64,000 nt of DNA from a virus, in IMG/VR virus record IMGVR_UViG_3300023208_000003, positions 96,001 through 160,000 of that record, one strand, 5' to 3'. How positions within the stretch are numbered: the first letter of the stretch is position 1; every line of letters begins with the position of its first letter. The notes under the pieces were generated by a model. The model had not been told where the DNA came from and did no database searches. It saw nothing but the letters and a program-made list of their open reading frames with translations. A program made the position numbers and the translations under genes. Of the stretch, positions 4,918 through 63,154 are shown one piece after another.

Positions 4918-5567
4918 AAATCAAGAAGTTAAATCTCACTTTACAATGCATGAGATTTATCCTGAAATGTCAAAAATAAAAAGTGAGTTTGTAAATATGC
5001 CACAAGGTAAAATTTCAAAATTAATTGAAAAGAAACTCAAACTATTAAAGACGAAATATGGATTTGACGCTATTCCGACAGCTTTTTTTTAAAACTCATT
5101 CTAATGACTTTTTTTTTGGAGAGTATGGAATTACGTTTACTTTCAGTGACAGAACAGCAACAATTGATCTTACAAAACTTAGAAATGAAACCAATTTAAC
5201 TTTAGGACTATCTTCTAGAAAAAATAATTACACTACGCTCGAATTTAATTGTCCACTAAGTTTAACATTCAAAACTGATAAATCATTTAGTGAAGCATTA
5301 TGCGAATTCGCAGCAAACGGAAAAACTCTGCAGAATATTCATAAAATTATTCCTGACGTTTATAGTTTACGTGTAGTTGATACAATTGAAAGCAACGTGT
5401 TAGGGCTTGTTTTAATGAAAAAATTAGAAGCTGGGTTTATTGATTTTGGAGCATCAAATAAAGATTGGTCATTAATAGTCTGTCGTTATCTTCACAGCAA
5501 TCGTGACCTGCTTGAATGCAAAACTGAGTTAATTGAAAAAGGATTTGGAGCTTACGCAAAGCTATGA
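4895..5567 (+). pseudogene. YAKL-family paralogue 3, frameshifted at T8 tract 5083-5090
   Basis: The MKIQQLLENQE ORF stops at TAA 5090-5092 immediately after GCTTTTTTTT. The +1 frame continues to DLLECKTELIEKGFGAYAKL*. T7 would give one ORF. Confidence 0.72.
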
Positions 5568-6325
5568 AAATAAATCAATTATTTGAAGAAGTTAATCACT
5601 ACGCCACCATTCGCTTTCGTCTGAGTCCCTTTGTGGTTGATGATGAAACTGGCGAGCTTTTACCGATTAAGCGCTGGCAAAAAGACGGGGTTGACGCCTT
5701 TAACGTCGACAGTGATGCTTGGAAAGAAACACTGCAGTTGGTTAAAAACGCTAATGTTGATGGTTTAAAAATGTTCAGAATGTCTGCCCAATCAAGAAAT
5801 AATAGTGATCTTGGGTATGATTTTATTTTTTACGTGACAAAAGCAATCAACGTTGATCAAGCGCTTTTAGAGCTTCACAGTAAGATCGCTTATTACGATT
5901 CTCATTCGGAACCTAAGAAAGGGAGTGCGATGTATGTGAACTCCATCGTCTTTATTTCTCCTATTCCAGCTGGTCTTACCTTTGATGAGGAAAAAACTCG
6001 AGACTTGCAGAAGTGGAACTGGGACGGTATTGCGCTTGGCGGAAGAAGTGCTTCTGCTGCGCAAAATGAGCTTTCACTTGCAAATATCAAACACATCAAG
6101 TGCTTCAATTTATTTTTGTTCGGTAAGGTAGTAAGTAACGCGTTAGGCATTTTGCTAAATCCTACAATACGAACGCTAACTTCAGCATCAGGATTTAAAT
6201 CGCCTAATCAAGTATGGAATCCTTGGATCCCAATAGTCACTAAGCATTTAGATGGCGATAAAGACATTCTTGAGTGTAAAACAGATTTGATAGAAGCTGG
6301 TTACAAGGAACTCGCGAAAATCTAA
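5564..6325 (+). CDS. YAKL-family paralogue 4
   Basis: MKINQLFEE...DKDILECKTDLIEAGYKELAKI*; ATGA overlap with previous gene. Confidence 0.85.
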   Translation: MKINQLFEEVNHYATIRFRLSPFVVDDETGELLPIKRWQKDGVDAFNVDSDAWKETLQLVKNANVDGLKMFRMSAQSRNNSDLGYDFIFYVTKAINVDQALLELHSKIAYYDSHSEPKKGSAMYVNSIVFISPIPAGLTFDEEKTRDLQKWNWDGIALGGRSASAAQNELSLANIKHIKCFNLFLFGKVVSNALGILLNPTIRTLTSASGFKSPNQVWNPWIPIVTKHLDGDKDILECKTDLIEAGYKELAKI

Positions 6326-6326
6326 A

Positions 6327-6356
6327 TTGTACTTTTTCTTACTTTGATGTTATAAT
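6327..6356 (+). promoter_or_regulatory. sigma70-like (early/middle) promoter TTGTAC-N18-TATAAT with extended TG
   Basis: The same motif recurs at 8360-8388, 9049-9078, 58469-58497 and 59942-59970, with 17-18 nt spacers. Confidence 0.65.
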
Positions 6357-6378
6357 TTGCATTAAAATAGGGTGATTT

Positions 6379-7038
6379 ATGTCTGCTGAAGCTCCATTAC
6401 TTGGTTACGGTGCGCGCTACGCCGTAATGATAAAAAATCCGTATGAAAAAAACCCGGAACAGTTTTTATCCAAAATCTTCAAGCAGCTTGAAGTAAACGT
6501 TACTGCTGCACTTCAAGATTATCCTATCTATTCAATCAGTTTCAATGTTGAAACTGCCGGCAAATTCGTTTCATTAATAATTTTCTTTGACGATGCAGCT
6601 TTTACTATTGATATTGAAAAGCTGCACGCAACTATTTTAGATAACCTCAAAGCTTTAAATTTAAAAGTAGCAAATTCTGATAAATACTACGGAATGACGA
6701 ACTTGTATTTGCCTACAAGCATTTCAATATTTGTTTCAGATAAGATCTTTGAAACTGATAATGGAATAGTGCTGGTTTCTGGCAGGTCCCTTAGTGGAGT
6801 TCATAAACAGCTGATAAATGTCAATTGTATTATCTTACAAGACACAATCAAATCAAACATTTTAGGATTGCTTTTGATTGATAATTTAGTAGAACTTAAC
6901 TTTACAAGTAAAGAAGTTCGAGAAAGCAATCGTACTTGGACAGAGCCTTACAAGCTGGCTAGATTGGAAAAAATGGATTTGCTCGAGTTTAAAGCGATGC
7001 TCATTGAAAATGGATTATCACAATACGCGAAACTATGA
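6379..7038 (+). CDS. YAKL-family paralogue 5 (no capsid-targeting-like N-terminus)
   Basis: SLSGVHKQL...SNILGLLLI...MDLLEFKAMLIENGLSQYAKL*. Confidence 0.85.
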   Translation: MSAEAPLLGYGARYAVMIKNPYEKNPEQFLSKIFKQLEVNVTAALQDYPIYSISFNVETAGKFVSLIIFFDDAAFTIDIEKLHATILDNLKALNLKVANSDKYYGMTNLYLPTSISIFVSDKIFETDNGIVLVSGRSLSGVHKQLINVNCIILQDTIKSNILGLLLIDNLVELNFTSKEVRESNRTWTEPYKLARLEKMDLLEFKAMLIENGLSQYAKL

Positions 7039-7697
7039 AAGTACAAACATTATTAAAAGAAAACACTAATTTTGAAGGGTTTAAATACAGCTTCAGAGTG
7101 TCTGAAGAATGGCCTAGTCAGCCCCAAGATAAAGAAAAAAATATCAGTAACAGTGTTAATAGCGTAATTAAAGAACTTTATTCATTGTCGTTTTCAATAA
7201 AAGAAATTCTTTTTAATTTTGATGGAACCGAGAGAAAATTCAAAATTGAGTTTAAAGATGTTTCAGAAGTTGTTAACTTAGGTCATTTTCACGATGAAAT
7301 CAAAAAAATACTTAAGAACAATAATTTAATATTTACCATGAGTGATGAATATATTGCTAATATGACAATGATGTTTCCAGGCAAAATCGGTGTTCGTATT
7401 AGCGCATTTCAGAGAAATAACGGGTGGGCTACAGTCGTCGTATACGGTAATTCATTAAAAGATGTTCATAAAAGAATTCTTAATGCTGAAGAGCTCGTTA
7501 TTCAAAATGAAATTAACTCAAGTGTCTTAGGACTTATCTTAATGTCTGGAACGTCTATACGTTTTAGATCAAATCAAATCATTGAAGATAATCCTTGGCT
7601 TGATTTATATGTTGAAGCAATGGAGCAAAAAATGGACGTGCTTGAGTTCAAAGCGATGCTCATTGAAAATGGAATGTCACATCTGGCAAAATTATGA
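7035..7697 (+). CDS. YAKL-family paralogue 6
   Basis: MKVQTLLKE...MDVLEFKAMLIENGMSHLAKL*. Shares 24 identical nt with paralogue 5 (6991-7014 = 7650-7673). Confidence 0.85.
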   Translation: MKVQTLLKENTNFEGFKYSFRVSEEWPSQPQDKEKNISNSVNSVIKELYSLSFSIKEILFNFDGTERKFKIEFKDVSEVVNLGHFHDEIKKILKNNNLIFTMSDEYIANMTMMFPGKIGVRISAFQRNNGWATVVVYGNSLKDVHKRILNAEELVIQNEINSSVLGLILMSGTSIRFRSNQIIEDNPWLDLYVEAMEQKMDVLEFKAMLIENGMSHLAKL

Positions 7698-8359
7698 AAG
7701 TTCAAACATTACTAGAAAGTGAAGAAAGTTTACTAACCACTCCAGGCTACGCGTATGTCACATACATCTGTTCTAGTGAGTACCCAAAGGGGCTAAAAGA
7801 AATTATTGAAGAGCTCAAACATAAGATACCTTGTACAAAATTTGTAGAAAATAAAGATAGCTACATTAATGCAGAAGAAGGTGTTGAAACGTGTAAGCTT
7901 ATCTTTCACTTTGCTTCAGGTAATGTTAGTATCAAACAACTACAAACTGACATTCGAAAGATTGTTTTCAATAAATTTGATTGGAATTTCATTAGAGGGT
8001 TTGGTAGAATTGGACTTTCTTATATTAATTTTCCAACTAGTGTAGTTGTAAATTCCGATTACATTGAAATTGATGACAATGAAAACATTGATTATGCAAC
8101 TTCTTCAACTACTCTCAAAAATATTCACAAGTCAATAAAAGGAGAAATCACGTTTCTAGAACTTCATAGAGAGATTGAAGACTCAGTTTTAGGCTTATGT
8201 CTTTTAGAACACCGTGACTTTAAAATTATGTCATCAAGTTCAAAAGTAGCCGGCACAAACGTATCTTGGGTTAAGCTTTACAGAGAACATAAAGATGATC
8301 TTCTAGAGTTTAAAACTGCTCTCATTGAAGCTGGACTTCCACATCTCGCAAAAATTTAA
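7694..8359 (+). CDS. YAKL-family paralogue 7
   Basis: MKVQTLLESE...DDLLEFKTALIEAGLPHLAKI*. Confidence 0.85.
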   Translation: MKVQTLLESEESLLTTPGYAYVTYICSSEYPKGLKEIIEELKHKIPCTKFVENKDSYINAEEGVETCKLIFHFASGNVSIKQLQTDIRKIVFNKFDWNFIRGFGRIGLSYINFPTSVVVNSDYIEIDDNENIDYATSSTTLKNIHKSIKGEITFLELHREIEDSVLGLCLLEHRDFKIMSSSSKVAGTNVSWVKLYREHKDDLLEFKTALIEAGLPHLAKI

Positions 8360-8388
8360 TTGTACCTTTTTTACGCTTATGTTATAAT
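8360..8388 (+). promoter_or_regulatory. sigma70-like promoter TTGTAC-N17-TATAAT
   Basis: TTGTAC 8360-8365 and TATAAT 8383-8388, preceded by TGT; immediately upstream of ATG 8395. Confidence 0.6.
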
Positions 8389-8394
8389 AGTAAT

Positions 8395-8985
8395 ATGAGC
8401 GTAAAACTTAAGTTAACATTTTCAGCAAATGTAGATTTTTACCCATCATATACGGTAAAAATCGCGGCGGCGCTTCTTAAAGAGTTTAATGTTTCGCCTG
8501 ATCTTTGGATTTATGGTAACGCAAATTTAAATCTTGACGTTACATTCACCGATGTGCAAACTGTTAACATCAGTGAGCTAATTCATAATTATAAAAGATG
8601 TATTTTAAAAGCATTAAATCCACCAGCATCATCTTATTTAGTCTTAACCGTGATCGCGCGTAGTATCGAACTTCATGTTCCTAGCGTTACAAAAATCATA
8701 ATGGATGATAAACTTTCTGCTGGGCACAATCTTTTAAAGCTGTTTGGCACTGACTTTCATAACCTTCAAAAGGTTGCCGATCTCAACTCAACGATAGTCG
8801 TTGACATCAAGGATCACGTTAAGGCTAACGTTCTATCAATGTGTCTTCTTTCAAATTGCATGTTTAAAGTTGAAAATATTGAAAATTTAAAATGGCTTAA
8901 TTTATTTTATGATACTGATAGAGATTTATTAGCATTTAAAGCTGCTTTAATTGAGAATGGATTTTCACAATTGGCAAAAATATGA
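8395..8985 (+). CDS. YAKL-family paralogue 8 (no capsid-targeting-like N-terminus)
   Basis: ANVLSMCLL...DRDLLAFKAALIENGFSQLAKI*. Confidence 0.82.
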   Translation: MSVKLKLTFSANVDFYPSYTVKIAAALLKEFNVSPDLWIYGNANLNLDVTFTDVQTVNISELIHNYKRCILKALNPPASSYLVLTVIARSIELHVPSVTKIIMDDKLSAGHNLLKLFGTDFHNLQKVADLNSTIVVDIKDHVKANVLSMCLLSNCMFKVENIENLKWLNLFYDTDRDLLAFKAALIENGFSQLAKI

Positions 8986-9048
8986 ATATTGCTAAAGATA
9001 GTATTTTTAAACTATAGAATTTGTTCCAAAGCAATACGCTAAATTTTA

Positions 9049-9078
9049 GTGTACTTCTTCTGATTTCCTTGTTATAAT
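9049..9078 (+). promoter_or_regulatory. sigma70-like promoter GTGTAC-N18-TATAAT
   Basis: Matches the recurrent motif; upstream of GGAG RBS and GTG 9114. Confidence 0.6.
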
Positions 9079-9113: not shown

Positions 9114-9362
9114 GTGAATCTAAAGAAAGCAAAGGCTCTACGCCGAGCCGCAAAAAATATCATTACAGGTTTAACTCAGGCCGGTCAAACTATTGAGCCA
9201 ACTGGGTACGTTGAAATTGAAAAGAACCGTAAGACCATGATGGTTGATGGCGCGTTAATTCCAATTTCAGTAGGAACCATCTTAAACGCCAAGAATACCT
9301 TCCGCGGCATCTACCGTAACCTTAAGCGCTCTGCTCGTAACCAGCGCATATTAGGCCTATAG
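9114..9362 (+). CDS. hypothetical basic protein
   Basis: 82 aa, GGAG RBS, GTG start, promoter upstream. Confidence 0.65.
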   Translation: MNLKKAKALRRAAKNIITGLTQAGQTIEPTGYVEIEKNRKTMMVDGALIPISVGTILNAKNTFRGIYRNLKRSARNQRILGL

Positions 9363-9375
9363 GGAGACTATAAAT

Positions 9376-9585
9376 ATGCTTATTTATGATAAGATAATGT
9401 CCCTCAAGTCAGGCGACATCTTTATCGTACACGTTGACACCTATGATTTACCAAAGCCAAAGGCTCGTCAGCTTTTGCGCAAGCACCTTGTTGTGCTACG
9501 GGAACTTATTCCCAATAAAAAAATTAGAATTTTAGTGTTTGCAAAAAAATCCGTTTCGTTTTCAGTTATTCGTTCAGAAGTTTAA
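9376..9585 (+). CDS. hypothetical protein
   Basis: 69 aa with GGGAG RBS. Confidence 0.6.
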   Translation: MLIYDKIMSLKSGDIFIVHVDTYDLPKPKARQLLRKHLVVLRELIPNKKIRILVFAKKSVSFSVIRSEV

Positions 9586-9619
9586 AAGTTTAAGCCGTTT
9601 ATTTGTTTTGATTCTGTTT

Positions 9620-10570
9620 TTATAGAGGTGCTTGTGGGTTCCGGGACTTTTGTTCGCACCTCTCAAATCAAAACCTTAAAAAGGACTGCACGGTTAGATC
9701 AACAGTACAAGAACTGCCGTCCCCAATGATCTCACACTGCAATTAAGTGCGCGCTGAAGAGCTGACTAAAAAGATATAATTCGTAGGTGTTGCGAGCCTA
9801 TAGTTAAGTTTCTCGTTATTTTGCTAGAGAAATTAATATCGCACCAGAATGGGTTTACCAACTGGTAAAGTGGGTCTTGACAATGTAGCCTTGCCGCGAG
9901 AGCTGCCTGTAGAGGTTTGGAGGGGCTAATTCTTACACGCTGAAAGAAGCGTAAGGAATTAATAACTTAAAAAGAAGACATTGGTGCCTGGACTTGCCCT
10001 TGAGAGCCAATAGCTTGGGGCGCCGCAAGGCGAGGCCTGATAGTATCAGGTTGAATGGCAGGATAGACTAGCGCTTCCGTAAAGCCGACACGAGAAAGAA
10101 AGGATTTCTTTCAAGCTCATAAACGACCATATCGCGACAACCGTAAGGACTTTTTAATAAGAGCTTTTACGGTTGTCGTTCTGAATTTAATTCAGTCCGC
10201 CAAATCGTTCTTAGTGTGGAACGTAAAACGACGGGGATAAGTATCGAATTAGTAGTCGTCCACAAAAACCAGTCGAGAGATTGGTGTAGGCTACCTGGCA
10301 TAGCAAGCCAGCTTAAATAAATTTTGGTCGATAAACGCTTACTATTGTCACTCGATTAATCACTGAGGTAATCAGCTTGATTGGGTTCTACTGAAAATCC
10401 TGTTAATGGGTTTGGGCCGTCTTTATCTAAAAGACTTACAATAATGTCCCTATAATCCAATAACTACATAAAGCTAATTAAAAAGCTTCAATGCAGTGAT
10501 AAACGGGAGAGCGGTAGAGAGGTAGAGATATGTCCCGAGGAAGGTTATAGCTATATTCCTCAATCAGTTT
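9620..10570 (+). ncRNA. putative large structured non-coding RNA (family unassigned; ends approximate)
   Basis: No ORF of 60 aa or more over 9586-10706 in an otherwise gap-free genome. At least 8 hairpins, with GNRA loops and G-U pairs that favour the + strand. Confidence 0.55.
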
Positions 10571-10706
10571 TTAACAAAATAGATAAATTATCAAAAGAGC
10601 TTTGTTTAAATTAACCATTTTATTGGTTAGGCTTAAAAATTTGATATACTTCAAAAATCCTCAATCTTTCTGATAAATAAGTCATCACCTTTATCAGATT
10701 GTCTTA

Positions 10707-11375
10707 ATGAAAACATTCAAGCGCTTTCTAACAGAAGCACCCAAAATTTATAATTCAGATCGTCATTATCCAAACGAGGATTCTGAAGATCTAATCATAA
10801 AAGGTAATATTGAAGATAGTCCTGTTATTGATTTTAGTGACTGGGTAGAGTACGATGAGCAGTATAGTCCAGGCTGTATTGTAGAAGGAAATGTTACTGT
10901 CAGTAAAATTGATTCATTTAAAACTTGTGTTGGCGCTCCAAGTAAAATTAAAAAAACTTTAACAATTCAATATTGCAAAAATTTTATTTCATTAAAAGGG
11001 TTACCTGAAAAGATCGGCGGAAATCTTTATGGATTAAACATTCGTGGTTGTACTGCGTTGACAACTTTAGAGTATTGTCCAAAACAACTTGGCGCTTATT
11101 TTAACCTTGACGGTTGTACGAGTTTAATTAGCTTGAAGTATATGCCGAAGAAAATGGATGGAGATCTGTTTTTAACGGATTGCAAAAATTTAAAAAACAT
11201 TCTTCACGTTTTTCTAACCATTGGTATTGATGAAATTCATTACGATGCTAATCAATCTAATCTAGAACAAGCGCTTTATATTATTTGTGATCATTACTTT
11301 AAAAAAGATAGGGATTTACTTGAGTGCAAAGCTGAATTGATAGAAAGAGGATTATCAGAATATGCAAAGCTTTAA
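10707..11375 (+). CDS. YAKL-family paralogue 9, LRR-rich
   Basis: MKTFKRFLTEA. About 23-aa repeats (L.I..C..L.SL.G.P..I). DRDLLECKAELIERGLSEYAKL*. GATAAATA at 10672. Confidence 0.88.
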   Translation: MKTFKRFLTEAPKIYNSDRHYPNEDSEDLIIKGNIEDSPVIDFSDWVEYDEQYSPGCIVEGNVTVSKIDSFKTCVGAPSKIKKTLTIQYCKNFISLKGLPEKIGGNLYGLNIRGCTALTTLEYCPKQLGAYFNLDGCTSLISLKYMPKKMDGDLFLTDCKNLKNILHVFLTIGIDEIHYDANQSNLEQALYIICDHYFKKDRDLLECKAELIERGLSEYAKL

Positions 11376-62194: not shown

Positions 62195-62397
62195 AACGAA
62201 AGGACCTTGATTTTTACAATGTTGAAGTTGTAATTGAAATTGTAAACGGCGGTTTTATTTTAAACTACCCAACTTTTGAAAATGCTGGAAATGCAGATGA
62301 ATTATCTAGCGTTGGACAACGTCGTGAAGTTTTTCACACCCGCGCCAAATTAAATAAAAAGTTAAAAGAAGTAGTCGATAATCTAACTGAAAAATAA
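62191..62397 (+). CDS. hypothetical protein
   Basis: 68 aa, ATGA-coupled, GGAGG RBS. Confidence 0.6.
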   Translation: MKRKDLDFYNVEVVIEIVNGGFILNYPTFENAGNADELSSVGQRREVFHTRAKLNKKLKEVVDNLTEK

Positions 62398-62445
62398 TTC
62401 TAACTTGGAAGCTCGTAAAGAGCTTCATTTTACGTGGAGCTTTTT

Positions 62446-62712
62446 ATGAGCTTGCTTTTTGATACTAGTGCAATCGAAAAGTTACAAGAAACAGGAATTA
62501 AAAAATTCCGAATAGAAATTAATAATAACGATGAATTTAGTATTGTTCAAATTGATGAAGTTGAATTGCCGGATATTGCTGACGCTATTGTAGAAATTCA
62601 AGACATTTTAGTGTATATTGATTTTATAAGCTACACCATTCTCGTAGAAAGCGTTGTTAAATTCGATACTACGTTAGATACTTTTATTGTTGATTCTCAA
62701 TATGTTTCATGA
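62446..62712 (+). CDS. hypothetical acidic protein
   Basis: GGAG RBS, ATG 62446. Confidence 0.5.
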   Translation: MSLLFDTSAIEKLQETGIKKFRIEINNNDEFSIVQIDEVELPDIADAIVEIQDILVYIDFISYTILVESVVKFDTTLDTFIVDSQYVS

Positions 62713-63154
62713 TATCATAAAAAATAATGAATTACTAGTTCATAAAATACTTGATTATTCAGATAAAATTGATGAGGCGGCGCCTATCTTTGATATTGAG
62801 GGTAAGCGAATTGAAACGCTACACCGTGAGTTACCTAGTAACTTAGTTCGTTATCGTCAAATAGCTGATGAGTTAAAAACTCTAGAACAATTTCTCCTTA
62901 TTAAAAAGGAAAAAGCTGAGTCTGACGCGTATCGTAAGTTTAAAGAAGGTTCAAACAGAGCCCTTCAACCATCAGATATCAAGGCCTATGTACCTGGCGA
63001 TAAGGATGTTATAAGTTGGGCTGAACTTGGACTAGAGGTTACTCTTCTTAGAAGAAAAGCTGAATCAATTGTTGCCGCTCTAGAAACTTGGAGTTGGCGA
63101 ATTAGCGACATAACAAAATTAAGAATTGCAGAATTGCAAGACGTTATCCTGTGA
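62702..63154 (+). CDS. uvsY: recombination mediator (UvsY-like)
   Basis: Helical protein between uvsX and helicase; K..YV.GD.DV, L.T.SWRI.DI..LR. Confidence 0.65.
   Translation: MFHDIIKNNELLVHKILDYSDKIDEAAPIFDIEGKRIETLHRELPSNLVRYRQIADELKTLEQFLLIKKEKAESDAYRKFKEGSNRALQPSDIKAYVPGDKDVISWAELGLEVTLLRRKAESIVAALETWSWRISDITKLRIAELQDVIL

Follow-up and report, generated by a model that had tools for sequence, protein, structure and literature searches.

A non-coding gap in an uncultured T4-like lake phage joins a near-invariant 140-nt block to a GC-rich body and may be a lineage-specific RNA locus

Here we describe a 1.1-kb gap between genes (9586-10706) in a 64,000-nt stretch of phage DNA (bases 96001-160000 of the 197-kb IMG/VR record IMGVR_UViG_3300023208_000003; hereafter the window, whose numbering is used throughout unless the record or another contig is named). 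We tentatively read it as a lineage-specific non-coding RNA locus consisting of a sequence-constrained 5′ module and a fast-evolving body rich in G and C (GC), a reading that we regard as quite possible while stopping short of calling it probable. Comparison with the one true relative found, contig L096, indicates that the gap is a composite of three parts, of which only the block and the body belong to the candidate element. A sequence-only reading of the window had proposed a large structured non-coding RNA. Its non-coding status, RNA-like composition, bias towards the + strand, upstream promoter and absence from the catalogues stand. One large ornate RNA with a conserved fold is not supported, as the first ~140 nt alone are conserved, the bodies align with a z of only 1.5 and the closing helix is not conserved. 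The parts of the gap and their main structures are:

9596-9733, + strand: ultraconserved non-coding block of ~140 nt, aligned to L096 7061-7195
9624-9663, + strand: hairpin AGAGGTGC/GCACCTCT with an invariant 24-nt loop, within the block (alifold)
9734-10423 (3′ edge approximate), + strand: GC-rich (0.44), G>C-skewed, hairpin-rich body of 690 nt
10134-10179, + strand: 15-bp hairpin, the strongest local structure of the gap (pair probability 0.94)
~10424-10706, + strand: AT-rich 3′ part (GC 0.30 in both phages), an ordinary leader of the downstream paralogue

The record, 55% complete according to CheckV, encodes a T4-type portal, major head protein, tail sheath and baseplate hub together with several HNH homing endonucleases. 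Many uncultured phage contigs of 340-390 kb have a major capsid protein 57-77% identical to that of the record, and the gap-bearing stretch is present in ten sequencing runs, all of them DNA from lake-water metagenomes. These features identify the source as an uncultured T4-like jumbo phage of lake water. Four DNA runs that were compared gave identical low-depth fragments without variants or microdiversity. The relative was found by a protein search with ORF82, a small open reading frame (ORF) upstream of the gap. L096 is a 219.5-kb NCBI contig (GCA_038824965.1, JAWBPO010000001.1) filed as a metagenome-assembled genome of the archaeon Candidatus Nitrosotenuis; its genes include those for a T4-type portal, a baseplate hub and a prohead protease, and it is syntenic with the window phage and probably a misbinned jumbo-phage contig. 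Its layout is the same: a sigma70-like promoter, ORF82, ORF69, an ORF-free gap of 777 nt, a leader-bearing paralogue and the baseplate hub. Protein identities between the two phages range from 58 to 81%. Since their hubs are 81% identical and every other hub among 5.8 billion proteins reaches at most 61%, the two phages form an isolated pair. Third codon positions are identical in only 51% (ORF82) and 43% (ORF69) of cases, therefore neutral divergence between them is near saturation.

Against this background the block stands out, being 93-96% identical between the window and L096 with 70 nt (9618-9687) letter-identical. It is the most conserved 100-nt window of the ~12 kb aligned (0.97, compared with a mean of 0.77 and a standard deviation of 0.07), and its conservation exceeds even that of the portal gene. 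The differences comprise a 7-nt patch (9610-9616), two substitutions and two 1-nt indels, and they cluster in that patch, in a predicted loop and at a junction. Both indels shift the only small frame (from the GTG at 9634 to 9729) while the neighbouring bases are conserved, therefore the constraint acts on nucleotides and not on a peptide. Judged by this pattern, 9596-9733 is evidently under strong selection at the nucleotide level. The block is single-copy in the 197 kb, its best secondary matches not exceeding 16 nt, and no promoter or terminator pattern was found within it.

The body behaves differently. Its counterpart in L096 (7196-7646) is 451 nt long with a GC of 0.46, and no homology between the two bodies was detectable by global alignment (z 1.5 relative to shuffles), whereas the adjacent 3′ part, used as a contrast, gave a z of 5.4 and is 61-79% identical to L096. 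The search for homologues of the gap, proposed together with the RNA, has accordingly yielded one relative with a conserved beginning and a body that cannot be aligned. GC amounts to 0.42-0.46 over 9600-10400, the part in which the G>C skew is seen, compared with 0.30-0.35 in the flanks, 0.28 in other intergenic DNA of the genome and 0.30 at its third codon positions. The greater G/C richness described for the whole gap is thus correct for ~9600-10400 and does not extend to the last ~280 nt (10424-10706, GC 0.30). Since unconstrained DNA should drift to ~0.28-0.30, the values of the two bodies argue that both lineages have kept their composition away from mutational equilibrium. That the body has retained its length and GC suggests that it is not mere junk.

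The non-coding status of the gap is clear. The longest ORF on its + strand is no longer than 34 amino acids in genetic code table 11. A gene hidden by an alternative code was considered and rejected because table 4, TAG=Q and TAA=Q all left the gap without a long frame. No other ORF-free stretch of the 197-kb record comes near it in size; those next in length measure 277 and 294 nt, the latter lying in a transfer RNA (tRNA) cluster. Hence a 1.1-kb ORF-free stretch, and the only long non-coding gap around, had been rightly recognized, the former now under four genetic codes. One way to account for such a stretch is a non-functional remnant, that is decaying DNA of a dead paralogue, of another gene or of plain junk, in which the identity of the block reflects a recent recombination patch between lineages. 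The remnant idea draws on a 21-nt piece of the block, TCAAATCAAAACCTTAAAAAG (9663-9683; L096 7128-7148), which agrees in 19 of 21 bases with the start of the L096 paralogue, TCAAATGAAAACCTTCAAAAG (7821-7841), and hints at an origin from the 5′ end of a paralogue. The piece has ATC where the paralogue has ATG; it is A-rich and by estimate of borderline significance, and it may have been left over from the paralogue 5′ end or imitate the site at which translation of the paralogue starts. Several observations oppose decay. Searches with all ORFs of at least 60 amino acids of the genome and of L096 (tblastn) found no protein remnants in either gap, the stop-to-stop frames had no Pfam match, and stops are dense (18 in 374 codons in the single frame checked). 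Neutral DNA would be expected at the GC of 0.28-0.30 and not at 0.44-0.46 in both phages; the differences within the block are clustered, as under selection, and not spread as in a young patch; and both genomes, otherwise tightly packed, have kept 0.8-1.1 kb of non-coding DNA. We therefore hold a mere remnant to be rather improbable.

Candidates of other kinds were also dismissed. ARAGORN at default settings found no tRNA or transfer-messenger RNA (tmRNA) in the window, and relaxed settings, applied with a decayed or intron-bearing tRNA in mind, yielded poor and mutually inconsistent pseudo-hits with mismatched acceptor stems. A CsrB-like GGA sponge is not indicated, GGA being not enriched (12 GGA and 11 TCC), and the gap contains no iterons or repeat arrays of note.

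All nine stems listed by the sequence-only reading (9624-9663, 9928-9960, 10021-10032, 10036-10050, 10094-10112, 10134-10179, 10268-10285, 10295-10311 and 10537-10561) are present at those positions, and most recur among the helices of the minimum free energy (MFE) structure, for example 10134-10148/10165-10179, 10268-10274/10279-10285, 10295-10299/10307-10311 and 10537-10542/10556-10561. Two hairpins of the gap are GNRA-capped. The + strand as the sense of folding, likewise proposed, agrees with MFE values of -314.9 (+) and -282.5 (-) kcal/mol. Relative to dinucleotide shuffles, 971 nt of the gap gave z -3.29 (+) and -3.05 (-), and the whole gap of L096 -3.8. The bodies alone gave -2.85 (+) and -2.13 (-) in the window and -2.27 (+) and -0.33 (-) in L096. 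An initial z of -5.1 for 700 nt, from 15 shuffles, was not reproduced with other shuffles of an overlapping, non-identical stretch, and the weaker -2.85 obtained there is used here. Nine 700-nt coding controls ranged from -0.8 to -4.4 (mean -2.1, standard deviation 1.0). Among 200-nt windows only 10000-10300 was notable (z -3.2 to -3.4), because of the 15-bp hairpin at 10134-10179. The hairpins are real, yet with coding controls giving similar values their density is not clearly above the genome background once composition is controlled. The alleged density of hairpins is thereby confirmed as to the existence of the stems and an energy below that of shuffles, and is left in doubt by coding controls that reach similar values; the same division applies to the comparison with shuffled controls, where z values of -2.3 to -3.8 fall within the coding range. 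A closing helix or terminal inverted repeats were sought and rejected, the 22-bp long-range helix of the MFE structure being not significant relative to shuffled targets.

These data bear directly on the idea of a single ornate RNA of ~0.8-1.1 kb whose three-dimensional architecture is conserved and which would be a new class comparable with GOLLD and ROOL. GOLLD (RF01998) and ROOL (RF03087) are large ornate RNAs of phages and prophages whose structures have been studied by cryo-EM (PMC12286853). The gap resembles them in its length of several hundred nucleotides, the lack of ORFs, the many hairpins, the phage genome and the lake-water source. Their supposed kinship with it was not confirmed, as cmscan was negative even at E<=10 in both phages; the gap further differs from them in having no adjacent tRNAs and in being conserved over the first ~140 nt only, in one relative, so that a conserved fold is not supported. 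Rfam 15 gave no hits over the whole window at gathering thresholds. At E<=10 the region 9300-11000 produced only four noise hits (snoRNA, miRNA and lncRNA models; E 0.6-3), all within 10643-10980; they fall on the AT-rich 3′ leader or on the gene behind it, and none touches the block or the body. L096 6800-8100 produced a single noise hit in the downstream gene. Among the families without a match in the gap are GOLLD, ROOL, OLE, raiA, HEARO, RNase P and tmRNA, as well as all others of Rfam 15. A group I or II intron was rejected separately. There was no Intron_gpI, Intron_gpII or group-II-D1D4 match in either phage, ORF69 keeps its own stop in both, the downstream gene is complete with its own start, and no conservation of a 3′ exon with L096 was found. 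By these searches the element belongs to no catalogued RNA family, and since none matched, any RNA at the locus would be new.

Relatives beyond L096 were sought widely. No further ORF82 relatives were found in genome or viral contigs by alignment search, the ORF69 protein search recovered only itself, and the locus of a distant ORF82 homologue (L002) has no gap. Neither the window gap nor the L096 gap had a blastn match among INPHARED phages. The window gap had none among 67 related jumbo-phage records of IMG/VR, including the non-coding gaps of these, nor did the L096 body in 42 of those records and the 197-kb record itself. The syntenic 20 kb upstream of the major capsid protein gene in 12 relatives contained no comparable gap. 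The non-coding gaps of three relatives examined whole (G001, G011 and G006) matched neither gap by blastn or nhmmer, and a fourth (G007) had no usable gap. A RusA-type gene, looked for as a marker of genomic context, is absent. R1, a covariance model of the block, found no match in any of 31 related records. Exact 18-22-mers of the block, of its conserved loop and of the two bodies occurred nowhere in IMG/VR or in GTDB genomes, and in JGI metagenomes gave six chance matches only. For an ornate RNA speak the absence of ORFs, the high GC, the many stable hairpins, two of them GNRA-capped, the whole-gap z of -3.3 (window) and -3.8 (L096) and the favoured + strand. Yet catalogued large RNAs keep core nucleotides that family models detect, while 450-690 nt are unalignable here; in addition the closing helix is not conserved, Rfam has no match, the stability is not above that of coding controls, and the blastn, nhmmer and covariance-model searches brought no likeness. 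In our judgement such an RNA is doubtful indeed.

The genes and the promoter that lead into the gap are:

9049-9078, + strand: sigma70-like early promoter, GTGTAC (9049-9054), an 18-nt spacer and the extended -10 TGTTATAAT (9070-9078)
9114-9362, + strand: ORF82, a small basic protein with the conserved N-terminal helix MNLKKAKALRR
9376-9585, + strand: ORF69, a small protein ending directly before the gap

The location of the gap downstream of a promoter at 9049, noticed earlier, was corroborated, since the promoter is conserved in L096 (TGTACA-17-TATAAT with TG, 10/12 matches) and the promoter together with the 5′ untranslated region is 84% identical. In both phages the interval from ORF69 to the following gene has no predicted + strand terminator. 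ORF82 is 78% identical to protein P0002 of L096; its first 10 residues are kept in the distant homologue L002, which is 38% identical. The AF2 model (pLDDT 59) has a helix at residues 3-22, and Pfam and PHROG contain no family for the protein. ORF69 is 58% identical to its L096 orthologue; its AF2 model reached pLDDT 66 and is, like that of ORF82, of low confidence, and the weak Foldseek rows (E 0.02-0.3, nuclease-like folds) are not usable. ESM Atlas matches of both proteins were viral hypothetical proteins only. A perfect T4-late-promoter-like TATAAATA, conserved between the two phages, lies at 9369-9376 and overlaps the ORF69 start codon ATG; should the site be active, late transcripts would begin within ORF69 and continue untranslated into the gap.

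The conserved promoter, the lack of a predicted + strand terminator and the + strand folding bias together point to a rightward RNA. The early ORF82-ORF69 transcript would start at the promoter 9049-9078 and, with no terminator predicted before the gap, extend untranslated through the block and body, which would act as RNA. Because nearly every base of it is held fixed, the block may be a specific functional site, for the binding of a protein, such as the co-transcribed basic ORF82, or for pairing with a nucleic acid; the conserved basic N-terminal helix makes ORF82 a candidate partner. For the body, high GC and a folded state would be maintained while sequence and individual folds are free to change, and it might serve, for example, as a structured tail stabilising or insulating the transcript.

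A number of points weigh against such a non-coding RNA locus. All gap comparisons rest on two sequences, those of the window and L096. Neither phage has a predicted promoter or terminator that would delimit an RNA. Taken alone, the block is not more stable than its shuffles (z -0.15 on the + and -1.1 on the - strand). Its hairpin at 9624-9663, being identical in both phages, carries no covariation information, and a palindromic DNA site would explain the conserved hairpin equally well. The bodies are not alignable between the phages and differ in length, 690 nt as compared with 451 nt; their folding z (-2.3 to -2.9) falls inside the range of the coding controls; the 22-bp long-range helix has no counterpart in L096; and the high GC could stem from foreign DNA or from a role at the DNA level.

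Some of these points lead to an alternative that we consider unlikely on balance, though worth serious attention, namely a DNA-level element in a hyperplastic region, with the block as a cis-acting DNA site (recombination linker, origin/initiator or operator) and the bodies as distinct pieces of foreign DNA, exchanged beside it and functionless in themselves. The bodies, 690 and 450 nt long, have no detectable homology, the block is thermodynamically unremarkable as RNA, and gene content differs around the locus, with four extra paralogues in the window and a truncated downstream paralogue in L096. These four genes (6379-8985, within 6356-9041) lie upstream of the promoter and have no L096 counterpart, the L096 gene preceding the promoter aligning directly to window 5511-6356, therefore the promoter-ORF82-ORF69-gap module lies in a region of variable gene content. 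A precedent is offered by the promoter-early stem-loop (PeSL) motifs of T4-like hyperplastic regions, where they are exchange points between unrelated sequences (PMC4122927, PMC2839356). Like them, the block is a short conserved non-coding sequence with a stem-loop, situated in a variable part of a T4-like genome where conserved sequence meets unrelated sequence. In contrast, PeSLs are short, and a genome contains many near-identical copies of them, each with an early promoter and a terminator-like stem-loop, whereas the block is ~140 nt long and single-copy in 197 kb, shows neither the promoter consensus nor any other recognizable promoter, and its hairpin has no U tail. A DNA-level element would also require two independent GC-rich insertions at exactly the same point, and iterons or repeats were not found in the gap. 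Moreover, at a third-codon identity of 0.43-0.51 an unconstrained orthologous body would be unalignable too, so that replacement is not required.

The non-coding RNA reading can be drawn more sharply by analogy. The nut sites of lambda and the put sites of HK022 are cis-acting RNA sites that follow early promoters and render RNA polymerase resistant to termination. By comparison, the locus studied here follows small early genes downstream of an early promoter and precedes a long stretch of read-through; its short hairpin has an A-rich loop (CCUUAAAAAGG) and stands 8 nt after a CGCACCUCUCA stretch; and a small protein with a basic N-terminal helix, ORF82, would be co-transcribed. It is different in that the loop does not have the GNRA-like first G of boxB, the likeness spans ~35 of the 140 conserved nt, and no match to the N, Q or put families was found. 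Use of nut/put-like systems by T4-like phages is not known. One could imagine a two-part phage RNA of a new kind in which an almost invariant ~140-nt module recognised by ORF82 could serve as a nut/put-like processive antitermination or RNA-protection site and carry early transcription through the long untranslated stretch, fused to a rapidly evolving GC-rich body, e.g. a decoy or shield under host-driven diversifying selection; so specific a version seems to us improbable. Bacterial and phage small RNAs derived from 3′ untranslated regions or embedded in operons usually measure 50-200 nt and end at an intrinsic terminator. The block is like them in lying directly behind a stop codon, in having no visible promoter of its own and in a sequence conservation above that of the coding region, and unlike them in that no terminator was found and that it continues into another 0.7 kb of non-coding, GC-rich sequence.

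If the locus is expressed as RNA, it would add one more uncatalogued non-coding RNA locus, from the poorly known ~350-kb T4-like phages of lakes, and at most a new and narrowly distributed instance of the non-coding RNA loci of phages. The layout, a near-invariant 5′ module with a body keeping composition and not sequence, would be unusual and would bear on the control of early transcription or on transcript protection in giant phages. At present the result mainly tempers the initial claim, because the gap is real while two genomes do not support a conserved large RNA of the GOLLD/ROOL kind. A practical gain is a delimited 140-nt target (9596-9733) with the calibrated covariance model R1 for searches.

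Downstream of the candidate RNA two further features were annotated:

10669-10698, + strand: 9-bp hairpin, 8 nt 5′ of the ATG of the 10707 gene (pair probability 0.96)
10707-11375, + strand: first downstream member of the leader-bearing (MKTFKRF...) paralogue family, 222 amino acids

Between the phages this hairpin, which is outside the candidate RNA, differs by a single compensatory change, a G-C pair in the window being A-U in L096, and by four changes in the loop. The L096 counterpart of the 10707 gene is frameshifted and truncated (7826-7920 and 7938-8213), with a stop after 31 codons followed by a separate call of 91 amino acids. On the - strand a terminator-like hairpin of 11 pairs (10716-10745) lies within the first codons of the 10707 gene, and the strongest local z of the region, -4.4, was obtained on the same strand for 10600-10799. 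Elsewhere in the two genomes, the portal gene of L096 (13127-16039; 970 amino acids) contains an intein, Pfam Intein_splicing lying between two Portal_T4 matches, and the portal of the window phage has 549 amino acids and no intein.

ORF-free stretches of other kinds were met among the related contigs. In G006, a contig of 164 kb, three of them (62241-62980, 99349-100266 and 140824-141210; loci L111, L112, L113 and L115) share repeated units, 77-95% identical and in both orientations, and on this evidence they represent a family of dispersed non-coding repeats without relation to the gap. The complete genomes G011 and G001 (~350 kb) carry 46-53 tRNA genes, including suppressor-like ones with a CUA anticodon that ARAGORN calls as Pyl. 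Beside the tRNA arrays they have ORF-free stretches of 1.3-1.4 kb with a GC of 0.44-0.46 (G011:C1:240196-241579 and G001:C1:143983-145317), neither of which matched the gap. Outside the window, ARAGORN located in the record of the window phage itself (G000:C1) a cluster of 10 tRNA genes near the record end (194767-197086) and a permuted two-piece tmRNA with the tag ASNDAFYGDYALAA (190252-190583). Two-piece tmRNAs are known from only a few bacterial lineages, the alpha-proteobacteria, some beta-proteobacteria and the cyanobacteria, and the permuted tmRNA may hint at the lineage of the host.

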